Virus record (IMG/VR): IMGVR_UViG_2778261094_000007
From: a virus
Lineage: Duplodnaviria; Heunggongvirae; Uroviricota; Caudoviricetes
Strand: one strand, 5' to 3'
DNA: 7,594 bases
Part shown: positions 1 to 7,594 of the stretch, piece after piece
Layout of the letters: each line of letters opens with the position of its first letter
Position numbering within the stretch: the first letter of the stretch is position 1
The notes under the pieces: model-generated
Told to the model about the DNA's origin: nothing
The model's database searches: none
The model's input: only the letters and a program-made list of their open reading frames with translations
Program-made: the position numbers and the translations under genes

Positions 1-42
1 TAGTCTAAAAACTAGTATTAAGACTATCACTTATTTAAGTGA
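1..42. promoter_or_regulatory. Two adjacent palindromes: imperfect 26-bp palindrome (1-26, arms tagtct/agacta around actagt) and perfect 7-bp inverted repeat tcactta-tt-taagtga (27-42); candidate recombinase or repressor binding sites
   Basis: Direct reading: 1-26 matches its reverse complement at 22/26 positions; 27-33 is the exact reverse complement of 36-42. Lies immediately upstream of the decapitated integrase frame. Confidence 0.3.
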
Positions 43-242
43 TACTGGTTGTCTGGAGATTCAGGGGGCCAGTCTAAGGAGCAGCCGATCAATCTCGTCA
101 AAACTGGCTTACATGCTTAGGATCGCTCTATGAATTTGCTAAACGCCGTTATGACGGAATACCAGACAGTAACCCTTTTCACGGTCATAACCTCGAAGCA
201 CGTCGCACAATCGAGAGTTATCAACCGTTTACACCTGAACAA

Positions 243-806
243 ATGCAAAAGCTACTTGATGCAGCGGAGCCGGAGATCAGAAATATTATTTTAATGGGCT
301 TGTTTTCAGGATGCAGATTAGACGAACTGGCAAGCCTGAAAAAGTCAGAGGTTGTAACTGTGGAAGGAATACGCTGTTTTTATATCAGCAAGAGTAAGAC
401 TAAAGCAGGGATCAGACACGTTCCGATACATTCAAGACTATCGATTATTGTCGATGAATATTTAAATCATAATTATGGTGAATATTTGTTCCCTCACTCG
501 AACAAAGTAAAAAGAATCGACGGCAAGAAAGGCCCGTTCTATTCTCAAGCATTCTCACGTTTACGTCGTAGCGTCTTGCCAATCGCTACAGATAGACAAT
601 GCTTTCACAGCTTGCGCGGGATGTTTATCACTTGTCTTGATCGTGCCGGAGTGCCTGAACAGCGGATCGGAGCCATTACCGGACATACAGAGCAGAGAGC
701 TAAAACAGAAGCCTTTCGCACCTACTCACAAGGGGCAAGCATTCCAGAATTAGCTGAATATGTAGAATTAGTAAAATATGAATTAAATATTGATTTTAAG
801 GCGTAA
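243..806 (+). CDS. int: Tyrosine recombinase / phage-type integrase, C-terminal catalytic domain only (5'-truncated, probable remnant)
   Basis: Translation carries the ordered tyrosine-recombinase catalytic residues: Arg in FSGCRLDE (315-317), Lys-rich hairpin KSKTK, H-x-x-R in HSLRG (606-617), His in ITGH (684-686), Tyr in RTYSQ (723-725). The frame is open upstream to 78 and encodes linker-like sequence (LGSLYEFAKRRYDGIPDSNPF) but contains no ATG/GTG/TTG and is closed by TAA at 75-77; no Shine-Dalgarno before ATG 243. Confidence 0.8.
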   Translation: MQKLLDAAEPEIRNIILMGLFSGCRLDELASLKKSEVVTVEGIRCFYISKSKTKAGIRHVPIHSRLSIIVDEYLNHNYGEYLFPHSNKVKRIDGKKGPFYSQAFSRLRRSVLPIATDRQCFHSLRGMFITCLDRAGVPEQRIGAITGHTEQRAKTEAFRTYSQGASIPELAEYVELVKYELNIDFKA

Positions 807-814
807 AAAATCAT

Positions 815-832
815 AGGCGCTTCATTGCGCCT
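815..832 (-). terminator. Hairpin between convergent genes (aggcgc-ttcatt-gcgcct), likely intrinsic terminator for the minus-strand cluster and possibly bidirectional
   Basis: Perfect 6-bp GC-rich stem with 6-nt loop, 4 nt downstream of the 218-aa gene stop (839-837); on the minus strand it is followed after 4 nt by a run of six T (complement of A 805-810). It is also 8 nt after the integrase stop. Confidence 0.45.
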
Positions 833-1566: not shown

Positions 1567-3468
1567 TTAGTTAACGCTACTCTGTCCTGACAACGTGCTA
1601 AGAATCAGATTCGAACTAAACTGATTGTTGTTCGCTCTGATCTCAGTGCGGATTAAATCCTGAAAGCCGGGACCGTTAGGGATGACGTTAACAGAGATCA
1701 TATCACTCGGCACCGTAACCTGTGCATTCACGTTAACAGGGGTTGCGTATTGACGTTGTAGGCTTACAGTCGGCTGATAGGCTTCTGCTTTACGTGCAAC
1801 AAGGGTTGATCCGTAGCTGTTAGCATTGCCATTAATTAAATCAGTCCACCACCCTGGAACGCCGGACTGTGTTTCCTCACCGCGCACAATACGCCCTACA
1901 TCTCTCGTATCGAGTCCAGTTGCATAACGAATACCTTCATTGATAATCGTTGATGGCGACCATTCCCCATCTGTAACAGCGTCCATAACCTTTTGTGTCT
2001 CAGGTCGGTTATCATTCTCACCACGGCTAAGATGTTTATTAATCCAGCTTGTGATTTGATTCCCGTAAGAAGTCATAGAGGTCAGTAATACAGCGCCTTG
2101 TTTAGCCAAATCCCCGAACGATGCACCAACACCATAAGCTGCATTCTGTAAGGCTTTGCTTTCTTCCGGTTTGAGTGCTGGCATGTTGGCTATGCCATCA
2201 AAGAAGCCCAAAATAGCCTGATTCGATAGTCCATCTGTCAGACGGTCAAAGGCTGTAGCTGTCTTGTTAGCTGCGCGATATTGCTCTTTCTGTGCTTCTG
2301 TCAGTAGCTGCCCGTTGTTTTTCATATCAACCATCGTTTTACGGAACTCTTCCCCATCACGGGAAAACATCTTGAGATAATGGCTGGCATCGTCTGCTAA
2401 TGGTTCGATCAGGGATATGATGGCTTCTTTAGTCATTCCTCGGCGTTCACCTTCTCTCACCACGTCTTGTAGGAGTTGCAGCGGTCGCCCCTGGTAGGAA
2501 GCTATCTTATCTTTGTTCCATGCAAAGGCATTCTGAATATCATTTAATGATCCTTCCCCGCCTCGCCACTCTTTTTTCTTACTATCCCATTCAGCAGTTC
2601 GGCTTTGATGACCAATGCGTTCGTTTAAGTCTTTGATATTATCAGTGGTCTTGTCCGCGCTTGCACTTGATACACCGTTTGCCCTCCCCCAATTAACCAT
2701 TGCAGCCACCTGATTGCTATCGGCACCTACCAGATCGCTCATCTTCTGCAATTCCATACGTTCACGGGCTTTTTCCATTCCAGCAGATACAGCCATACTT
2801 CCTAAGCCAACGGCAGCGCCGCCGATAATGCCACCAACACCGCCCATCATTAACGCGCCACCGCCGCTAACACCTTCTTTGTGGAGCTTCTTAGCAGTAA
2901 CTGGATATACCCCCCCAGCGGCAGCATTACGACGCGTAGCAGCGGCTGCGGCTCGTCTTTCTAATGTGATGCGGTCACGGATCAGGGCATTCATCTTCGC
3001 TTGCGATATAGCGCCGGATTCATAGAGGCGGGTTTGTTCCTTAATGTAACGTAGAGCATCGTGATATTTCTTAATATCCATCCCTTCGCCATAGCGGGAA
3101 TTGTTCTTGATGCCTTGTAACTGGCGATATGATGCAAGGCGCTTGATCTCTGCCTTTTCAGCAATTGAGGCTTGTTTAGCCTGTGCTTTAGCGAGGTTTT
3201 TAGCTTCCTGTAGCTTCTGTTTAGTGCTGGCTTTAGATGCCTGTGTCTCAGATTTAACAGCCTGCTTAACATGCTGATCATGCTGGCGCTGAATCTCTTT
3301 TCCCAGCCTCTGTAAATCTTTCTGACGTGCTGCCGCCACTTGCACAGGTTTGATCCCCTGCATCTTCTTTTGTAGCTTATCCACTTCATTCTTAGCTTTC
3401 TGTAAGCTCTTGAAATCAGTGGTAAATGTCACAACATTACTAATTCGTGAGGCGTTAATTTCTAACAT
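1567..3468 (-). CDS. Large coiled-coil plus glycine-zipper membrane-segment protein, 633 aa; tape-measure-like or ejection/pilot-like protein
   Basis: 1.9-kb ORF. N-terminal ~170 aa are K/Q/A/E-rich heptad-like sequence (coiled coil); aa ~201-231 read GGGALMMGGVGGIIGGAAVGLGSMAVSAG (DNA 2776-2868), a glycine-zipper hydrophobic segment typical of tape-measure and membrane-inserting phage proteins; C-terminal ~400 aa globular. AGGGA 10 nt upstream of ATG 3468. Confidence 0.85.
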   Translation of the reverse strand: MLEINASRISNVVTFTTDFKSLQKAKNEVDKLQKKMQGIKPVQVAAARQKDLQRLGKEIQRQHDQHVKQAVKSETQASKASTKQKLQEAKNLAKAQAKQASIAEKAEIKRLASYRQLQGIKNNSRYGEGMDIKKYHDALRYIKEQTRLYESGAISQAKMNALIRDRITLERRAAAAATRRNAAAGGVYPVTAKKLHKEGVSGGGALMMGGVGGIIGGAAVGLGSMAVSAGMEKARERMELQKMSDLVGADSNQVAAMVNWGRANGVSSASADKTTDNIKDLNERIGHQSRTAEWDSKKKEWRGGEGSLNDIQNAFAWNKDKIASYQGRPLQLLQDVVREGERRGMTKEAIISLIEPLADDASHYLKMFSRDGEEFRKTMVDMKNNGQLLTEAQKEQYRAANKTATAFDRLTDGLSNQAILGFFDGIANMPALKPEESKALQNAAYGVGASFGDLAKQGAVLLTSMTSYGNQITSWINKHLSRGENDNRPETQKVMDAVTDGEWSPSTIINEGIRYATGLDTRDVGRIVRGEETQSGVPGWWTDLINGNANSYGSTLVARKAEAYQPTVSLQRQYATPVNVNAQVTVPSDMISVNVIPNGPGFQDLIRTEIRANNNQFSSNLILSTLSGQSSVN

Positions 3469-3502
3469 GTTAATTGTTTCCCTGTATTATGATTGTTGTT
3501 TG

Positions 3503-3700
3503 TTATTGTTTTTTAAAGCAATAATATTGGATTGCCTCAAAAGTGCTGCATCCAGTCTGAAAGACACGCTGCCGCACATTATTCGAATCAATTGAAAGCA
3601 TTCTGCATAAGGCACTGACATTGATTATTGAGTCATCGCTAATAGCTGCCAGTTCTTTTACAGATTTAAGAATTAATGCCTGTGAATTTTCTGTGTTCAT
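3503..3700 (-). CDS. Small hypothetical protein, 65 aa
   Basis: ORF in the same orientation between the capsid-like and 633-aa genes; ATG at 3700 preceded by a purine-rich GAGAGAAAA stretch; non-low-complexity composition. Short, so uncertain. Confidence 0.45.
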   Translation of the reverse strand: MNTENSQALILKSVKELAAISDDSIINVSALCRMLSIDSNNVRQRVFQTGCSTFEAIQYYCFKKQ

Positions 3701-3826
3701 TGGTTTTCTCTCACATATATATTTTTATTTGGGTTTGTAGACAGTAGAAAAACAAAAAAGGGCAAGAGACAGCGCATATTTTGCTTATATGATTATCCCT
3801 TACCCTTATTGCCCCGATTATTTCCA

Positions 3827-3843
3827 GACGATGGGGAATCGTC
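3827..3843 (-). promoter_or_regulatory. Stem-loop gacgat-gggga-atcgtc 13 nt downstream of the capsid-like gene stop; candidate partial terminator or mRNA 3'-stabilising hairpin
   Basis: Perfect 6-bp stem with 5-nt loop read directly; not followed by a U-run on the minus strand, so not a canonical intrinsic terminator. Confidence 0.3.
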
Positions 3844-3856
3844 TATTAACGCTTTA

Positions 3857-4888
3857 TTACGCAGCAGATCCGAAGATGATAGCTTGCGGAATGTTGTTTA
3901 CTGGCAGATAAGATGTCTCAGTAACCACAGATGGGAATTGGAATTCATCCTTGATTAGATATTGGTGATGTAACACGGCATCTTGACCTAACTCAGCATG
4001 ACGCACACCAACGCCGCTATGAAGCTGGTAACACTGTGCCGCTTTATCCATTACCGGAACAATTGCGAAACCGTTCTCTCCGATGTGAGCAACAATCTCA
4101 GGAAACATTGACACGTCAATAACAGTGATCCCACCAATCTGGAAAGAGTCATAGGCTGGGTTAGAATCAACCATACGGGTAAACAGGGCCGTAGCACTCG
4201 CATCGCCTGCATATTTCACCATGTCACTGATCAGCGGGTTAGATGACAAACCATCAGCAGCAGCGCCAGCAGCAAAGATAATTACACCAGTTCGCTTTGC
4301 AGCAAGACCAGACCCCAGCTTTTCACTCTGTAAGCGCACCGCTTTACGAATAGCAAGGAACGGGTTAACAGTAGTCGATGCAAAGTCGATAGCGGGTACC
4401 GTGGTTTTAGCCTGACCGTCGAGGAAGTCGAGATCACCTTGTCCGGCATATTCAGATTCAACTTTCAGGCCCAGCAGCGCGGTAATCAGATCCACTTCAA
4501 CACGGTTTGCGTGTGAACGGTAATGAGCCTCAGAGAAATCATTAACCGCTACCAGCATAGCATCAGAACGGTTTGGATATTGGCGGCTGTATTGTTCCAG
4601 GTCACGAGAAGTAACAGCGTTAATACTGCCGACGTGTTTCATCTGGAAAAGTTTGTTTGACCATTCCTGACGTTTAGAGGCGTTCCAGTCGCTTTGAGCG
4701 TAAGGCGAGGTTTCCCCAGCTACCTGCACAAACTGATCGATCAGGTCGGTAAGAAGAATGCTGTTTTCTGTATGATATTGCACATCGAACAGATCGAGAT
4801 TAGTAATCAGGGTATTAAGTGCATTCTCATAAGCAAAAGGAGTTACTACCGCAGTATTAACGCCAAAATATGTTGATAAATCATTCAT
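3857..4888 (-). CDS. Putative major capsid protein, 343 aa (size and position compatible with a lambda gpE-type capsid protein; assignment by context only)
   Basis: Long ORF with a strong ribosome-binding site (AAGGAAAATAATA-ATG), directly downstream of a ~127-aa Ala/Val-rich gene in the decoration-then-capsid order seen in lambda (gpD 110 aa, gpE 341 aa); low Cys, rich in A/V/S/T/D. No sequence-level identity to lambda gpE could be confirmed by eye. Confidence 0.8.
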   Translation of the reverse strand: MNDLSTYFGVNTAVVTPFAYENALNTLITNLDLFDVQYHTENSILLTDLIDQFVQVAGETSPYAQSDWNASKRQEWSNKLFQMKHVGSINAVTSRDLEQYSRQYPNRSDAMLVAVNDFSEAHYRSHANRVEVDLITALLGLKVESEYAGQGDLDFLDGQAKTTVPAIDFASTTVNPFLAIRKAVRLQSEKLGSGLAAKRTGVIIFAAGAAADGLSSNPLISDMVKYAGDASATALFTRMVDSNPAYDSFQIGGITVIDVSMFPEIVAHIGENGFAIVPVMDKAAQCYQLHSGVGVRHAELGQDAVLHHQYLIKDEFQFPSVVTETSYLPVNNIPQAIIFGSAA

Positions 4889-4902
4889 TATTATTTTCCT
4901 TG

Positions 4903-5286
4903 TTAAGTCGTAGGGATCGCAAGTTCTTCATAACCAGCAATTACAAAGCCGAGAGATTGCAGTTTTGCAATAACACTTGCCTTTTCCATGCTGTTAAATT
5001 CAATCCCATCTTCAGCCAGAATAACGAAAGTAGGATGTGCAACCACTACGCTTTCCTGTCCTTCATAAGCCGGTTCAACTACTACGTGAGCAATATCAGA
5101 TGCAGTTGTTGCTTTGGTGCCATCGGCTTTCAGCAAAGCCCCGACAATAAGATCGTCAGTGAGAGGTGAAGCCAGTTTGACGAGGCGATCTTGCAGCACT
5201 GGATCAGCAGCGTAAGCTACTACCTTACAGCGTGAACGGGAATTATCCGCATTCACTGCTTTTAATTTTCCATATGGGTTAGCCAT
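4903..5286 (-). CDS. Putative head decoration protein, 127 aa (lambda gpD-like by size, position and loose motif resemblance)
   Basis: ORF immediately upstream of the capsid-like gene (14-nt gap) with the same AAGGAAAATAAT initiation motif; segments SRCKVVAYAAD and GALLKADGT loosely resemble lambda gpD SRKLVAW and GILAVAADQ. Low-confidence function. Confidence 0.75.
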   Translation of the reverse strand: MANPYGKLKAVNADNSRSRCKVVAYAADPVLQDRLVKLASPLTDDLIVGALLKADGTKATTASDIAHVVVEPAYEGQESVVVAHPTFVILAEDGIEFNSMEKASVIAKLQSLGFVIAGYEELAIPTT

Positions 5287-5290
5287 AAGA

Positions 5291-5488
5291 TTATTTTCCT
5301 TTCAGTTGTTTAATTTTAGATTTAAGGGCATCAGCAAGACTAACCGCATCAGCCGATTTAAATAATTGGGCAGTGGTAGAACGAAGACTTTCGGGAGTAA
5401 CTCCCAACAGTGCGGCAACCTTAATGAGGTTTTCATCACTAACAATCATCGTTTCCCCGTCTTTGCTGATAATCATTTCTTGTTTCAT
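5291..5488 (-). CDS. Small hypothetical protein, 65 aa from ATG 5488 (the ORF track extends to a TTG at 5530); first gene of the structural cluster
   Basis: ATG at 5488 is preceded by AGGAA with ~9-nt spacing, whereas the TTG at 5530 has no Shine-Dalgarno and adds a hydrophobic extension that overlaps the upstream hairpin. Its TAA stop (5293-5291) lies inside the ribosome-binding site of the next gene. Confidence 0.6.
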   Translation of the reverse strand: MKQEMIISKDGETMIVSDENLIKVAALLGVTPESLRSTTAQLFKSADAVSLADALKSKIKQLKGK

Positions 5489-5520
5489 AAATAACGTTCC
5501 TGTTAGTGCCAGACAAATAA

Positions 5521-5568
5521 AAAGCCCCAATGCCGTAAGAGGTTAATTCTGACCAGCAAAGGGGCTTT
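5521..5568 (-). terminator. Terminator-like hairpin (stem aaagcccc / ggggcttt, ~32-nt loop) followed on the minus strand by UUUUUAUUUG, ending ~30 nt upstream of the first structural gene
   Basis: 8-bp stem arms at 5521-5528 and 5561-5568 read directly; minus-strand sequence downstream of the stem is ggggctttttatttg. The unusually long loop lowers confidence. Confidence 0.35.
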
Positions 5569-6425
5569 AACGTGCGGGCAATTACATAATTGATAAGTTA
5601 AACTATAAGAGGATTAAACATATCAGCAAATACACTTTTTAAATATACTTGATGATATGCTTAAAGGGTGAATAGATACTCCTGAAAACATGCTCTTAGG
5701 AAAACATGCGGAATCAATCAGGAATATCTATTCGGGGCGCGGTGGCCAACCGCTATCTTTCATGGTGTGGATGCACCAGTCAGATTTTAAGGAATCACTA
5801 TTCCAATCTACTCACAGATTAAATTTTTAATAATGATTAACTACACCAACAGTAATCTACCGTTTCAGAAAATCGTTTTTACAACCAAAGCTTATAGATC
5901 CGCATTCTATAAAACCCGTTTTGCTATCAATATTTCCAAAGTTTATTGCACCATTCTTAGCTAAACTCTCTCTGCTTGCGGCTAACGCTATGCAGATGAT
6001 TGTTTTTGACAACAACTTAATAGATTATTCTGTTACTAACTTCTGTCATTAAATAATAGTTTAATGATGTTAGTAAATAGTTATAAAATATAACTATCAG
6101 TGTAAGGCTCTTTAATGTTTTCTGACAAAATAAGGAGCTTTAGGATAAGCATAGATGAAAAATAAGAGCGGGAAGGGCAAGGAGATAACACCTACCCGCT
6201 TTTATCAAAATTAAGCACAATGCCTAACAACATTCATCAACACAACGTAGAAACAATCAACAATCAAAGAGGGAGTTATGATTATTCTAAAACTTCTTGA
6301 GAGATGGAAGGTAATATTTGTTAGAGGTTAATGCCACTCAACCTTTGAGGCTATCACCTTCCATATGCAGGGATTTATGACAGTAGAAGGATTAACACCA
6401 GTCAAAACCTTTTTATCTACCCCTA

Positions 6426-6445
6426 ATTTCATTATATAATGAAAT
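6426..6445. promoter_or_regulatory. Perfect 20-bp palindrome atttcattat-ataatgaaat; candidate operator or protein-binding site
   Basis: Sequence equals its own reverse complement over 20 bp; lies 28 bp downstream of the 102-aa gene stop in the AT-rich spacer; related ttcattat repeated at 6466-6473. Confidence 0.3.
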
Positions 6446-6472
6446 TGTTATAAATGCAAATGATTTTCATTA

Positions 6473-6781
6473 TCACTTAGAAGAAATAGCACTTTTTGCT
6501 AAATCATCTACTAATTGCTGAATCTCTTCACTTGCAGCCTTTAACGTGCTGGCGGTGTCTGTGATGATTTGAGTGCACAGCCTGGCATCGTCCTCTGATA
6601 GCTCTAAATCGCTCACCAGAGAGATAAAATCGTCAAGGCTTACATTCACCTTCATTAAGCTAATAACGCATTGAGAGAGCGTGTAATCGCATAAATCTGA
6701 ATAGGCTTGATTTATTCTTGTTTGTAGTGAGATAGTCAGATCTAAAAGTTGTTCCATTGCATTGCTAATATCTTCTTCCAT
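6473..6781 (-). CDS. Small strongly acidic hypothetical protein, 102 aa
   Basis: ORF with AAGGAG ~10 nt upstream of ATG 6781; its start overlaps the stop of the upstream gene (TAATG, 6783-6779), indicating translational coupling; composition is strongly acidic (many D/E, few K/R). Confidence 0.7.
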   Translation of the reverse strand: MEEDISNAMEQLLDLTISLQTRINQAYSDLCDYTLSQCVISLMKVNVSLDDFISLVSDLELSEDDARLCTQIITDTASTLKAASEEIQQLVDDLAKSAISSK

Positions 6782-7026
6782 TATGCGGCTTCTCCTTGTA
6801 ATGCATCATTAATCATATTCAATACGATGTTAAAAGGTGTCTTGAGCGTCAGCACTTCATCACGATAACGCTCTAATGCTTCGTAGTCTTCTGTTTCTTT
6901 TGCCAGTCGGATTAACTCAGCATAGTTTTTTGCATCAGACAGGATCATCTGAAATAATTGTGTTTCTTGAATATAGCCAATCATTATTTTTCCTTTTTCG
7001 AATATTTTCATTGGGCGCTTATACAT
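6781..7026 (-). CDS. Small hypothetical protein, 81 aa (alternative start at ATG 6984 giving 67 aa)
   Basis: ORF inside the coupled operon; ATG 7026 has only a weak GGGTG upstream, whereas the in-frame ATG at 6984 is preceded by AAAAAGGAAAAATA, a strong Shine-Dalgarno resembling that of the capsid-cluster genes. Confidence 0.65.
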   Translation of the reverse strand: MYKRPMKIFEKGKIMIGYIQETQLFQMILSDAKNYAELIRLAKETEDYEALERYRDEVLTLKTPFNIVLNMINDALQGEAA

Positions 7027-7041
7027 ACACCCATCATTTTA

Positions 7042-7500
7042 TTAGTTAGAACGTTTGTTAGAAGCTAATGTATCTTCTAAATGAGCCATCAGATCGACTT
7101 CCGATGCACCACCTACACAATTATTGAAAGCGTTAAATCCCAAAAAATGATGATAGGAGCTAAACCCTAAAAGCTGCCAACGTTTCAGAGTGCCATCAGA
7201 AATGATAGTTTGTTTTCTTGTTCTTGGGCGAAAGTAAACGCCTGGCATTGACTGGATTATTTCTAATTCTTCATCGCTTAATTCAGGGGATTCTGCTTCA
7301 AGAATAAATATTATCTCTTCCCCTGGAATTTCGTTATTGGTGTGTGTCGGTGGACGTTGTCTTGTTGAATTGAAGTTACTGTTTTTTTCAATACGTTTTA
7401 AGTTATTACGTTTCTTTTTCCCATTTTCCCTCTTTTTATGTGGATTATAAAAACTTAATGTCATTGTTACGATGAATATCGCCATAAATGCATTTGCCAT
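7042..7500 (-). CDS. Hypothetical protein, 152 aa: N-terminal hydrophobic segment, Lys/Arg/Asn-rich linker, acidic stretch, C-terminal domain
   Basis: 459-nt ORF in ~30% GC DNA where stop codons are frequent; N-terminus AFMAIFIVTMTLSFY is hydrophobic (possible membrane anchor or signal), followed by KKRENGKKKRNNLKR. No clear Shine-Dalgarno before ATG 7500, so the start is uncertain. Confidence 0.55.
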   Translation of the reverse strand: MANAFMAIFIVTMTLSFYNPHKKRENGKKKRNNLKRIEKNSNFNSTRQRPPTHTNNEIPGEEIIFILEAESPELSDEELEIIQSMPGVYFRPRTRKQTIISDGTLKRWQLLGFSSYHHFLGFNAFNNCVGGASEVDLMAHLEDTLASNKRSN

Positions 7501-7594
7501 ATGTATTGCCCGATCTGGGTAATGACTCCAACTTATTGATAGTGTTTTATGTTCAGATAATGCCCGATGACTTTGTCATGCAGCTCCACCGATT

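Follow-up and report, generated by a model that had tools for sequence, protein, structure and literature searches.

Gene organization of the locus

We studied a 7,594-nt stretch of DNA, the IMG/VR record IMGVR_UViG_2778261094_000007 (the window, i.e., the whole stretch at its full length), and in particular a 633-aa open reading frame (ORF) in its minus strand that, judged from its sequence, is almost certainly a homologue of the tail tape measure proteins (TMPs) of phages. The window proved to be chromosomal DNA of Escherichia coli lying between the end of an insertion sequence IS2 and the end of an IS1; the same DNA is uninterrupted in strain D3. Its predicted structural operon contains, in this order, a small ORF, a cement-like protein, a capsid protein, a 65-aa protein, the TMP, a tail tube initiator and a terminator (Table 1). 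The initial annotation had placed the 633-aa ORF correctly and had also seen the capsid gene upstream of it with a single 65-aa ORF in between. It had reported the absence of major tail and chaperone genes, which held for tube, sheath and chaperone genes, none of which was found in the element, but it had overlooked the tube initiator gene located directly downstream. The context is indeed non-canonical, because the TMP gene belongs to a small integrative, satellite-like island and not to a phage (see below).

Homology with phage tape measure proteins

A PHROG profile search matched the 633-aa ORF with phrog_16051, ‘tail length tape measure protein’, at E=1.3e-72, and a second match, at E=1.1e-49, was obtained with chain V of PDB entry 21vq (Phi92_gp134). 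Both matches agree with the TMP-like layout that had been noticed at first. In phage phi92, gp134 is a trimeric TMP whose C-terminal residues 631-656 were resolved within the baseplate by cryo-electron microscopy, and gp135 is the hexameric tube initiator (PMC13450770). A tblastn search of phage genomes with the TMP returned 134 records, with 32-34% identity across the C-terminal 400 residues; nearly all of them corresponded to Phapecoctavirus, Justusliebigvirus and relatives (Stephanstirmvirinae). Compared with gp104 of phage phAPEC8 (662 aa), residues 1-68 were 38% identical and residues 197-632 were 32% identical (E=7e-62), with a single difference within residues 1-15. In a multiple alignment the TMP and its phage homologues were colinear across their whole length. 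The TMPs of the islands described below (613-639 aa) and those of the phages (647-662 aa) were 28-32% identical overall, the island proteins being 25-45 aa shorter. The 633-aa protein is a new, diverged member of an already known TMP family.

Of 5426 complete E. coli genomes, 99 carried the allele found in the window, and all copies except one were full length (98 of 99). Among the diverged orthologues of the island family, where the ratio was measurable, dN/dS was 0.12-0.24, indicating purifying selection. Because of the full-length copies and the selection acting on the orthologues, the ORF is not a chance reading frame.

RefSeq PGAP entries (e.g., NZ_CP127035.1) name this product either ‘cell envelope integrity TolA family protein’, which is misleading, or ‘hypothetical protein’. 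The TolA label was rejected since neither Pfam nor NCBIfam gave any TolA match; we suspect that the name is an artefact of the Ala/Lys/Glu-rich helical region of the protein.

Table 1 Features of the window, with their positions, strands and the basis of each assignment
Feature	Position	Strand	Basis
IS2 end, inserted in the integrase gene	1..76	.	
C-terminal 187 aa of a 406-aa tyrosine integrase, truncated by IS2	243..806	+	Pfam Phage_integrase E=2e-11
Bidirectional terminator-like hairpin closing the structural operon and the convergent integrase gene	815..832	.	Hairpin
Tail tube initiator (Dit-like), 218 aa	837..1493	-	Pfam Dit_like E=5e-28; PDB 21vq_N Phi92_gp135 E=1.6e-68
Predicted tape measure protein (TMP)	1567..3468	-	633 aa + stop, ATG start; profile and pairwise homology
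TMP C-terminal tip, aa 621-633 (LSTLSGQS)	1570..1608	-	Island-versus-phage identity 69%
TMP aa 261-360, core of conserved central domain (EGERRGM motif)	2389..2688	-	Island-versus-phage identity 54-62%
TMP Gly/Ala-rich hydrophobic ‘glycine zipper’ segment, aa 202-230 = GGGALMMGGVGGIIGGAAVGLGSMAVSAG	2779..2865	-	Kyte-Doolittle peak
TMP N-terminal tip, aa 1-20 (MLEINASRISNVVTF...)	3409..3468	-	Island-versus-phage identity 62%
Conserved 65-aa protein between capsid gene and TMP	3503..3700	-	Weak helix-turn-helix signal
Predicted major capsid protein (HK97 / lambda-gpE type), 343 aa	3857..4888	-	Family profile versus PDB capsids
Candidate cement-like (decoration) protein, 127 aa	4903..5286	-	Size and synteny with phAPEC8 gp115 / phi92 gp123
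First small ORF of the structural operon (65-79 aa in the family)	5291..5530	-	Conserved in family
AT-rich 0.94-kb non-coding spacer between early and late modules	5531..6472	.	GC 31-37%
Three small early genes (102, 81 and 152 aa)	6473..7500	-	152-aa family in all related islands
IS1 end, beyond which lies the remainder of the early region with the putative replication initiator and regulators	7517..7594	.	

Architecture and conservation pattern of the TMP

The AlphaFold2 model of the TMP, built on 24 homologues, was of modest quality (mean pLDDT 54). Long helices occupied residues 19-197 (block pLDDT about 40-86) and helices also covered most of residues 224-546, the Gly-rich stretch being disordered and non-helical (pLDDT about 20). 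The only confidently modelled domain spanned residues ~235-395 (pLDDT 75-89), and residues 400-633 formed low-confidence helices; a large C-terminal globular part, as had been proposed, can thus be recognized with confidence only in the first of these regions. The N-terminal third consisted of 30% K/R/E/D, and a crude heptad test showed a clear a/d periodicity only at residues ~15-42 (z=4.6). The ‘long N-terminal coiled coil’ of the initial annotation was therefore right as to a long helical region, but canonical heptads were seen only in that short part and ‘long charged helical region’ is the safer description. Foldseek comparison of the model with the PDB gave no match with E<1, conserved domain included, the C-terminal 230 aa of the model being of low confidence; the peptidoglycan hydrolase fold sought in this part of the protein was not found. 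A hydrolase domain (lysozyme, SLT, M23 or NlpC) was likewise rejected, as neither Pfam nor NCBIfam recognized one.

The glycine-zipper segment was real, though it had been drawn one codon too wide at each end (2776-2868). The hydrophobicity of the protein peaks here (Kyte-Doolittle 19-residue mean of 1.63), and the segment contains five overlapping small-xxx-small-xxx-small motifs; its hydrophobicity is borderline for a transmembrane segment. In nearly all homologues from islands and phages the peak (aa 204-223 in the TMP) lay roughly one third of the way along the protein, with no conservation of its sequence.

The layout with this segment and the unusual gene context had led to the proposal that the protein, instead of being a tail ruler, could serve as an internal ejection/pilot protein or as a membrane-targeting effector. 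Such a role would also suit the absence of tube, sheath and chaperone genes in cis, and the P22 proteins gp7, gp16 and gp20 and the microvirus pilot protein H are similarly helical, partly hydrophobic and may enter the envelope during DNA delivery. However, a hydrophobic Gly/Ala-rich segment is common to bona fide phage TMPs and, since its position is conserved among them, membrane insertion, if it occurs, would be an ordinary TMP property. No match to P22-type ejection, microvirus pilot, secretion or conjugation families, or to peptidoglycan hydrolases, was obtained for the TMP with Pfam, NCBIfam or PHROG; toxin families gave no similarity either and no enzymatic fold was recognized. Unlike the P22 and microvirus proteins, with which it shares no sequence or profile similarity, the 633-aa protein is homologous from end to end to a TMP of known structural location, and this homology, together with the tube initiator gene directly downstream, places it in a contractile tail. 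We hold the ejection or effector role to be extremely unlikely.

The conservation between island and phage TMPs was concentrated in three parts, i.e., both tips and the core of the central domain (Table 1); outside of them identity was mostly 6-35%. Residues L623, S627, G628 and Q629 of the C-terminal tip were invariant in islands and phages, and this tip corresponds to residues 631-656 of phi92 gp134, those resolved inside the baseplate (PMC13450770). Such a pattern, as read from the alignment, is the one expected of an island protein that has to remain compatible with components that a phage alone would supply. With the TMPs of the Stephanstirmvirinae the island protein thus shares full-length homology, a near-identical N-terminal tip, the conserved central domain, the C-terminal SGQS tip, the similarly placed hydrophobic Gly/Ala-rich segment and a tube initiator gene next to it. 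It differs from them in its shorter length, in its low overall identity, in the lack of chaperone genes before it and in its location in a 13-kb island instead of a 150-kb phage.

Tail tube initiator and capsid genes

The tube initiator gene starts 73 nt downstream of the TMP gene. Its product was 63% identical to phAPEC8 gp103, whose gene directly follows the phage TMP gene, and at the nucleotide level the gene was ~68% identical to those of phapecoctaviruses. Among the loci examined it was present only in the E. coli lineage of the window and in a related contig, L038 (see below). Given these identities, the tube initiator looks like a later acquisition.

The capsid gene was identified through its family. 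A profile of ten island orthologues matched, over the full length, PDB 9zbi_A (E=4e-19) and the major capsid protein of phi92, Phi92_gp124 (E=1.3e-18). The 343-aa protein itself matched phrog_29 at E=1e-4, its orthologues carry Pfam Phage_cap_E, and the phAPEC8 major capsid protein matched a second island capsid type (type B) at E=3e-10. These profile comparisons identify the 343-aa protein as a genuine major capsid protein. The 127-aa protein encoded next to it is probably a cement or decoration protein, as suggested by its size and position. Its best PDB profile matches were decoration proteins at non-significant values (E=0.98 and 0.22), its alignment with phage cement proteins by hhalign was weak (probability 5%, E=0.008), and its AlphaFold2 model was unusable (pLDDT 43).

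The 13.35-kb island

In strain D3 (locus L001) the island is bounded by perfect 22-nt direct repeats located 13,353 bp apart (L001 14403-14424 and 27756-27777), one of which is the 3' end of a tRNA-Gly(CCC) gene, and it adjoins the ETT2 type III secretion locus of E. coli. In the D3 chromosome (NZ_CP010140) it occupies positions 3,712,225-3,725,599, and strain JX21CE33 also has an intact copy. An intact 406-aa tyrosine integrase gene (L001 14510-15730) is situated at one end of the element, convergent with the structural operon. Beyond the structural genes and the spacer, the island encodes small proteins and regulators, a serine recombinase and a YecR-like lipoprotein. A 222-aa winged helix-turn-helix protein matched replication-initiator PHROGs at E=4e-6 to 1e-3, and four 22-nt iterons, GATAGGAACTCATTTCCTAGGT, were found at L001 24829-24930, inside the island and outside the window; they are probably an origin or an operator. 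When all the ORFs of the 13.35 kb were scanned with Pfam and PHROGs, no portal, terminase, protease or connector gene was detected, nor any tube, sheath, chaperone, hub, wedge or fibre gene. A tailocin or other contractile injection system was rejected, as the island has neither sheath nor tube. To our knowledge, the Stephanstirmvirinae are virulent 150-kb viruses that lack integrases, and the island is therefore unlikely to be a prophage of that group.

The copy in the window is probably no longer mobile by itself because IS2 cuts its integrase gene and IS1 sits in its early region. Its TMP gene, however, does not differ from that of strains whose islands are uninterrupted. In strain TW10573 (L037) IS1 and IS2 were found in the capsid gene. 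The insertions differ between the two strains; therefore these copies were inactivated independently, the TMP gene staying intact.

A family of islands in Enterobacteriaceae

Chromosomal homologues of the TMP, 29-59% identical, were found in Klebsiella spp., a second E. coli lineage, Pluralibacter, Raoultella, Citrobacter, Buttiauxella, Kosakonia, Scandinavium, Pseudenterobacter and Enterobacter. At least ten enterobacterial genera shared the compact layout and its gene order. The early part of the common plan encodes proteins of ~60 and ~58 aa, a variable replication gene (a winged helix-turn-helix initiator of 221-293 aa or a helicase-like protein of ~490 aa) and proteins of ~93, 128, 74 and 100-118 aa. 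After a gap of 0.5-0.9 kb, the late part encodes proteins of 65-74 and ~120-125 aa, the capsid protein (342-346 aa), a 62-66-aa protein and the TMP, and the plan ends with the convergent integrase. In a neighbour-joining tree the phage TMPs formed one clade and the island TMPs two deep clades, so that the island TMP genes represent old lineages and not recent debris.

The contig L038 (Logan contig SRR16178778_1816, 14,281 bp) had an exact 30-nt terminal overlap and is thus circular in the assembly. Its TMP, capsid protein and tube initiator were 57%, 56% and 61% identical, respectively, to those of the window's island. It contained the full early and late gene sets, the tube initiator, a 189-aa integrase-family gene and an HNH-like ORF, with no large integrase, and its gene order was that expected for an excised element. 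None of three further contigs of 12-16 kb, of which L041 is incomplete, showed a terminal overlap.

The insertions described above would fit a prophage or other phage-derived element in decay, with the TMP as a leftover without current function: the integrase of the window is cut by IS2 and its early region carries IS1, the TW10573 capsid gene is broken by both, and fragments with the small ORF, the TMP and the integrase occur on E. coli plasmids beside IS elements. Yet the minimal gene set and its order are kept with intact ORFs in at least ten genera, the dN/dS values and the nearly universal full length of the E. coli copies speak for current function, and the attachment (att) repeats of strain D3 are perfect. 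Random deletions would not repeatedly give one 11-14-kb architecture, and the related phages are, as noted, virulent. A functionless remnant therefore seems to us very unlikely.

Citrobacter sp. NCU1 (NZ_NRDO01000039.1; L010 and L016) carries two family islands ~13 kb apart on one contig, with separate integrases and different capsid and TMP alleles. Plasmid pCP53-92k (L044, NZ_CP033095.1, positions 3181-6810) has a truncated family island consisting of a 66-aa ORF, a 619-aa TMP (~28% identical) and an integrase; fragments of this kind were located on IncY plasmids and on conjugative or other large E. coli plasmids, with flanking IS elements.

A putative satellite of virulent myoviruses

The closest parallel to the island was provided by the PLEs of Vibrio cholerae. 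Their TMP, tail assembly chaperone and baseplate hub are 20%, 20% and 41% identical to those of ICP1, a virulent T=13 myovirus; the PLE TMP and not that of ICP1 is incorporated into PLE particles, whose chimeric tails are ~10 nm shorter (PMC12987554). The enterobacterial island was compared with the PLEs by description. Both are small integrative elements with an integrase, the replication initiator of the island being a weakly matched candidate; both carry a diverged TMP, shorter than that of the helper (putative for the island), and an inner-baseplate or tube-start protein of a virulent T=13 myovirus, and both lack tube, sheath and fibres. In contrast to the PLEs, the island has no recognizable tail assembly chaperone, belongs to a different host family and has its own major capsid protein and cement-like protein, whereas PLE applies an external scaffold, TcaP, to the coat of its helper.

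The island also resembles the cf-PICIs, which are enterobacterial integrative islands with their own HK97-type capsid gene, some of them with a TMP-like gene. As reportedly described by Alqurainy et al. in 2023, cf-PICIs encode a full head and packaging module composed of TerS, HNH, portal, protease and head-tail connectors. Identity with a cf-PICI was rejected because the Pfam and PHROG scans of the island revealed no portal, terminase, protease or connector, only the major capsid protein and the possible cement protein. With a capsid protein and a ruler and without portal or terminase, the island looks like an element separate from P4, PICI, cf-PICI, PICMI and PLE.

By analogy with PLE, the 633-aa protein probably works, in our judgement, as the ruler of a helper-dependent satellite. 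We infer that the putative helpers would be virulent T=13 myoviruses of the Stephanstirmvirinae type (phAPEC8, phi92 and relatives). The evidence counted for a satellite comprises the homology of TMP, capsid protein and tube initiator to those of phAPEC8 and phi92, the att repeats, the integrase, the replication-initiator-like gene, the conserved family under purifying selection, the conservation pattern of the TMP and the circular assembly of L038. A broader proposal, whose chances we see as evenly balanced, is that an undescribed, Enterobacteriaceae-wide group of 11-14-kb satellites brings its own capsid (plus cement) and ruler and leaves the rest to the helper, giving hybrid heads and tails; jointly with this proposal and held equally in the balance, the portal, packaging motor, tube, sheath, baseplate and fibres would be those of the helper. 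In the literature searched, whose journal coverage was incomplete, we found neither this island family nor any satellite of phAPEC8, Phapecoctavirus, Stephanstirmvirinae or rV5-type phages described.

The satellite would operate as follows. Upon infection by the helper, the island would excise and replicate, and its late operon would be expressed. Since the island has its own capsid and cement-like proteins, we propose that a shell of its own, probably smaller, would be assembled on helper portals. The island TMP trimer would dock by its conserved C-terminal tip into the baseplate hub of the helper; the hexamer of the island tube initiator, where present, would sit atop of it and start the tube. 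Tube and sheath of the helper would then grow along the TMP as far as its conserved N-terminal tip, where terminator proteins of the helper would cap it. The phi92 TMP of 659 aa corresponds to 24 tube rings (PMC13450770); by proportion, 633 aa would give ~23 rings, i.e., a tail about one ring shorter. The hydrophobic Gly-rich segment could serve the passage through the membrane during DNA ejection, as proposed for other TMPs.

Several points weigh against this satellite interpretation. It is built on computed evidence throughout, with induction, packaging and transfer as putative steps. No packaging-specificity gene or site (TerS, pac or cos) was recognized in the island, and no tail assembly chaperone was found there, whereas PLEs have one. 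Co-assembly of the island shell with the helper portal is an assumption because the island capsid protein is only 21-24% identical to that of the putative helper; the assignment of the cement protein is weak. The circular contig L038 may be an excised form, an episomal (plasmid-like) variant or a tandem array. The matches in IMG/VR, mostly prophage-style predictions made in bacterial genomes, also comprised true 150-kb phages and showed no encapsidation. The window itself has two IS insertions, and in a blastn search for distant similarity, phage DNA was similar only in the tube initiator gene and the 5' end of the TMP gene.

An alternative that shares much of this evidence is an island of defence by assembly poisoning, in which TMP, tube initiator and capsid protein would be dominant-negative decoys yielding dead phAPEC8-type particles, with no transfer. 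Decoys would show the same pattern of conserved interfaces with phage parts and a diverged remainder, and interference with tail assembly is documented as a defence in the Tai systems (PMC11364771) and in Rta of PLE11 (PMC12987554). The lack of packaging genes in the Pfam and PHROG scans and the intact TMP of IS-crippled copies would also fit. However, PADLOC gave no matches, one relative (L038) is circular, and the capsid protein, cement-like protein, putative replication initiator, integrase and att sites, in fixed compact order across genera, have the look of a transmissible element. Defence by decoys alone is, in our estimate, unlikely; it overlaps in part with the satellite interpretation, because interference and spread commonly go together in satellites.

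Should the island prove to be a satellite, then E. coli, Klebsiella and related bacteria would harbour a PLE-like parasite of virulent phages of the phAPEC8/phi92 type. Phages of this group see wide use in therapy and are popular candidates against avian pathogenic E. coli (APEC), extraintestinal pathogenic E. coli (ExPEC) and Klebsiella. It could then cut the phage yield, move chromosomal DNA between strains and explain differences in susceptibility from strain to strain. Following the PLEs, described in 2026, it would also be a second and independent example of a tail ruler exchanged by a satellite, and a case of a satellite replacing the coat protein itself instead of re-scaffolding that of the helper. 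The selection of a TMP for incorporation and the re-programming of capsid size would become testable in a tractable host.

Other features of the window and related islands

PADLOC, NCBIfam and Rfam returned nothing for the genes or the DNA of the window. The 65-aa protein encoded between the capsid and TMP genes was 33-49% identical within the island family. Sigma70_r4_2 was recognized in six of eight family members and HTH_17 in three of the eight, with a weak best value of E=0.006. A comparison of the protein with phAPEC8 gp105 and gp106, made with a chaperone in mind, showed no similarity; instead of a chaperone, the 65-aa protein might be an excisionase, a regulator or a factor conferring packaging specificity. 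The early genes 6473-7500 gave no family matches in Pfam, PHROG or PADLOC.

Gaps of 0.5-0.9 kb were present in related islands at the place equivalent to the AT-rich spacer of the window, which matched no Rfam family. The 370 nt upstream of the operon (minus-strand leader, 5531-5900) had a minimum free energy of -108 kcal/mol against -74.5 kcal/mol for shuffled sequences (z=-6.4), with long hairpins, e.g., 5670-5685 / 5718-5733. The regions upstream of the operon were poorly conserved when aligned across islands with boundaries that were not optimal. The spacer may represent a pac or ori region, a non-coding RNA or a leader with a regulatory role.

Many islands contain a short 192-aa gene of the Phage_integrase family at the end opposite to the large integrase (e.g., L003 1484-2062, L006 854-1432 and L041 1844-2422); resolution of dimers and membership in a neighbouring element are the candidate explanations for it.

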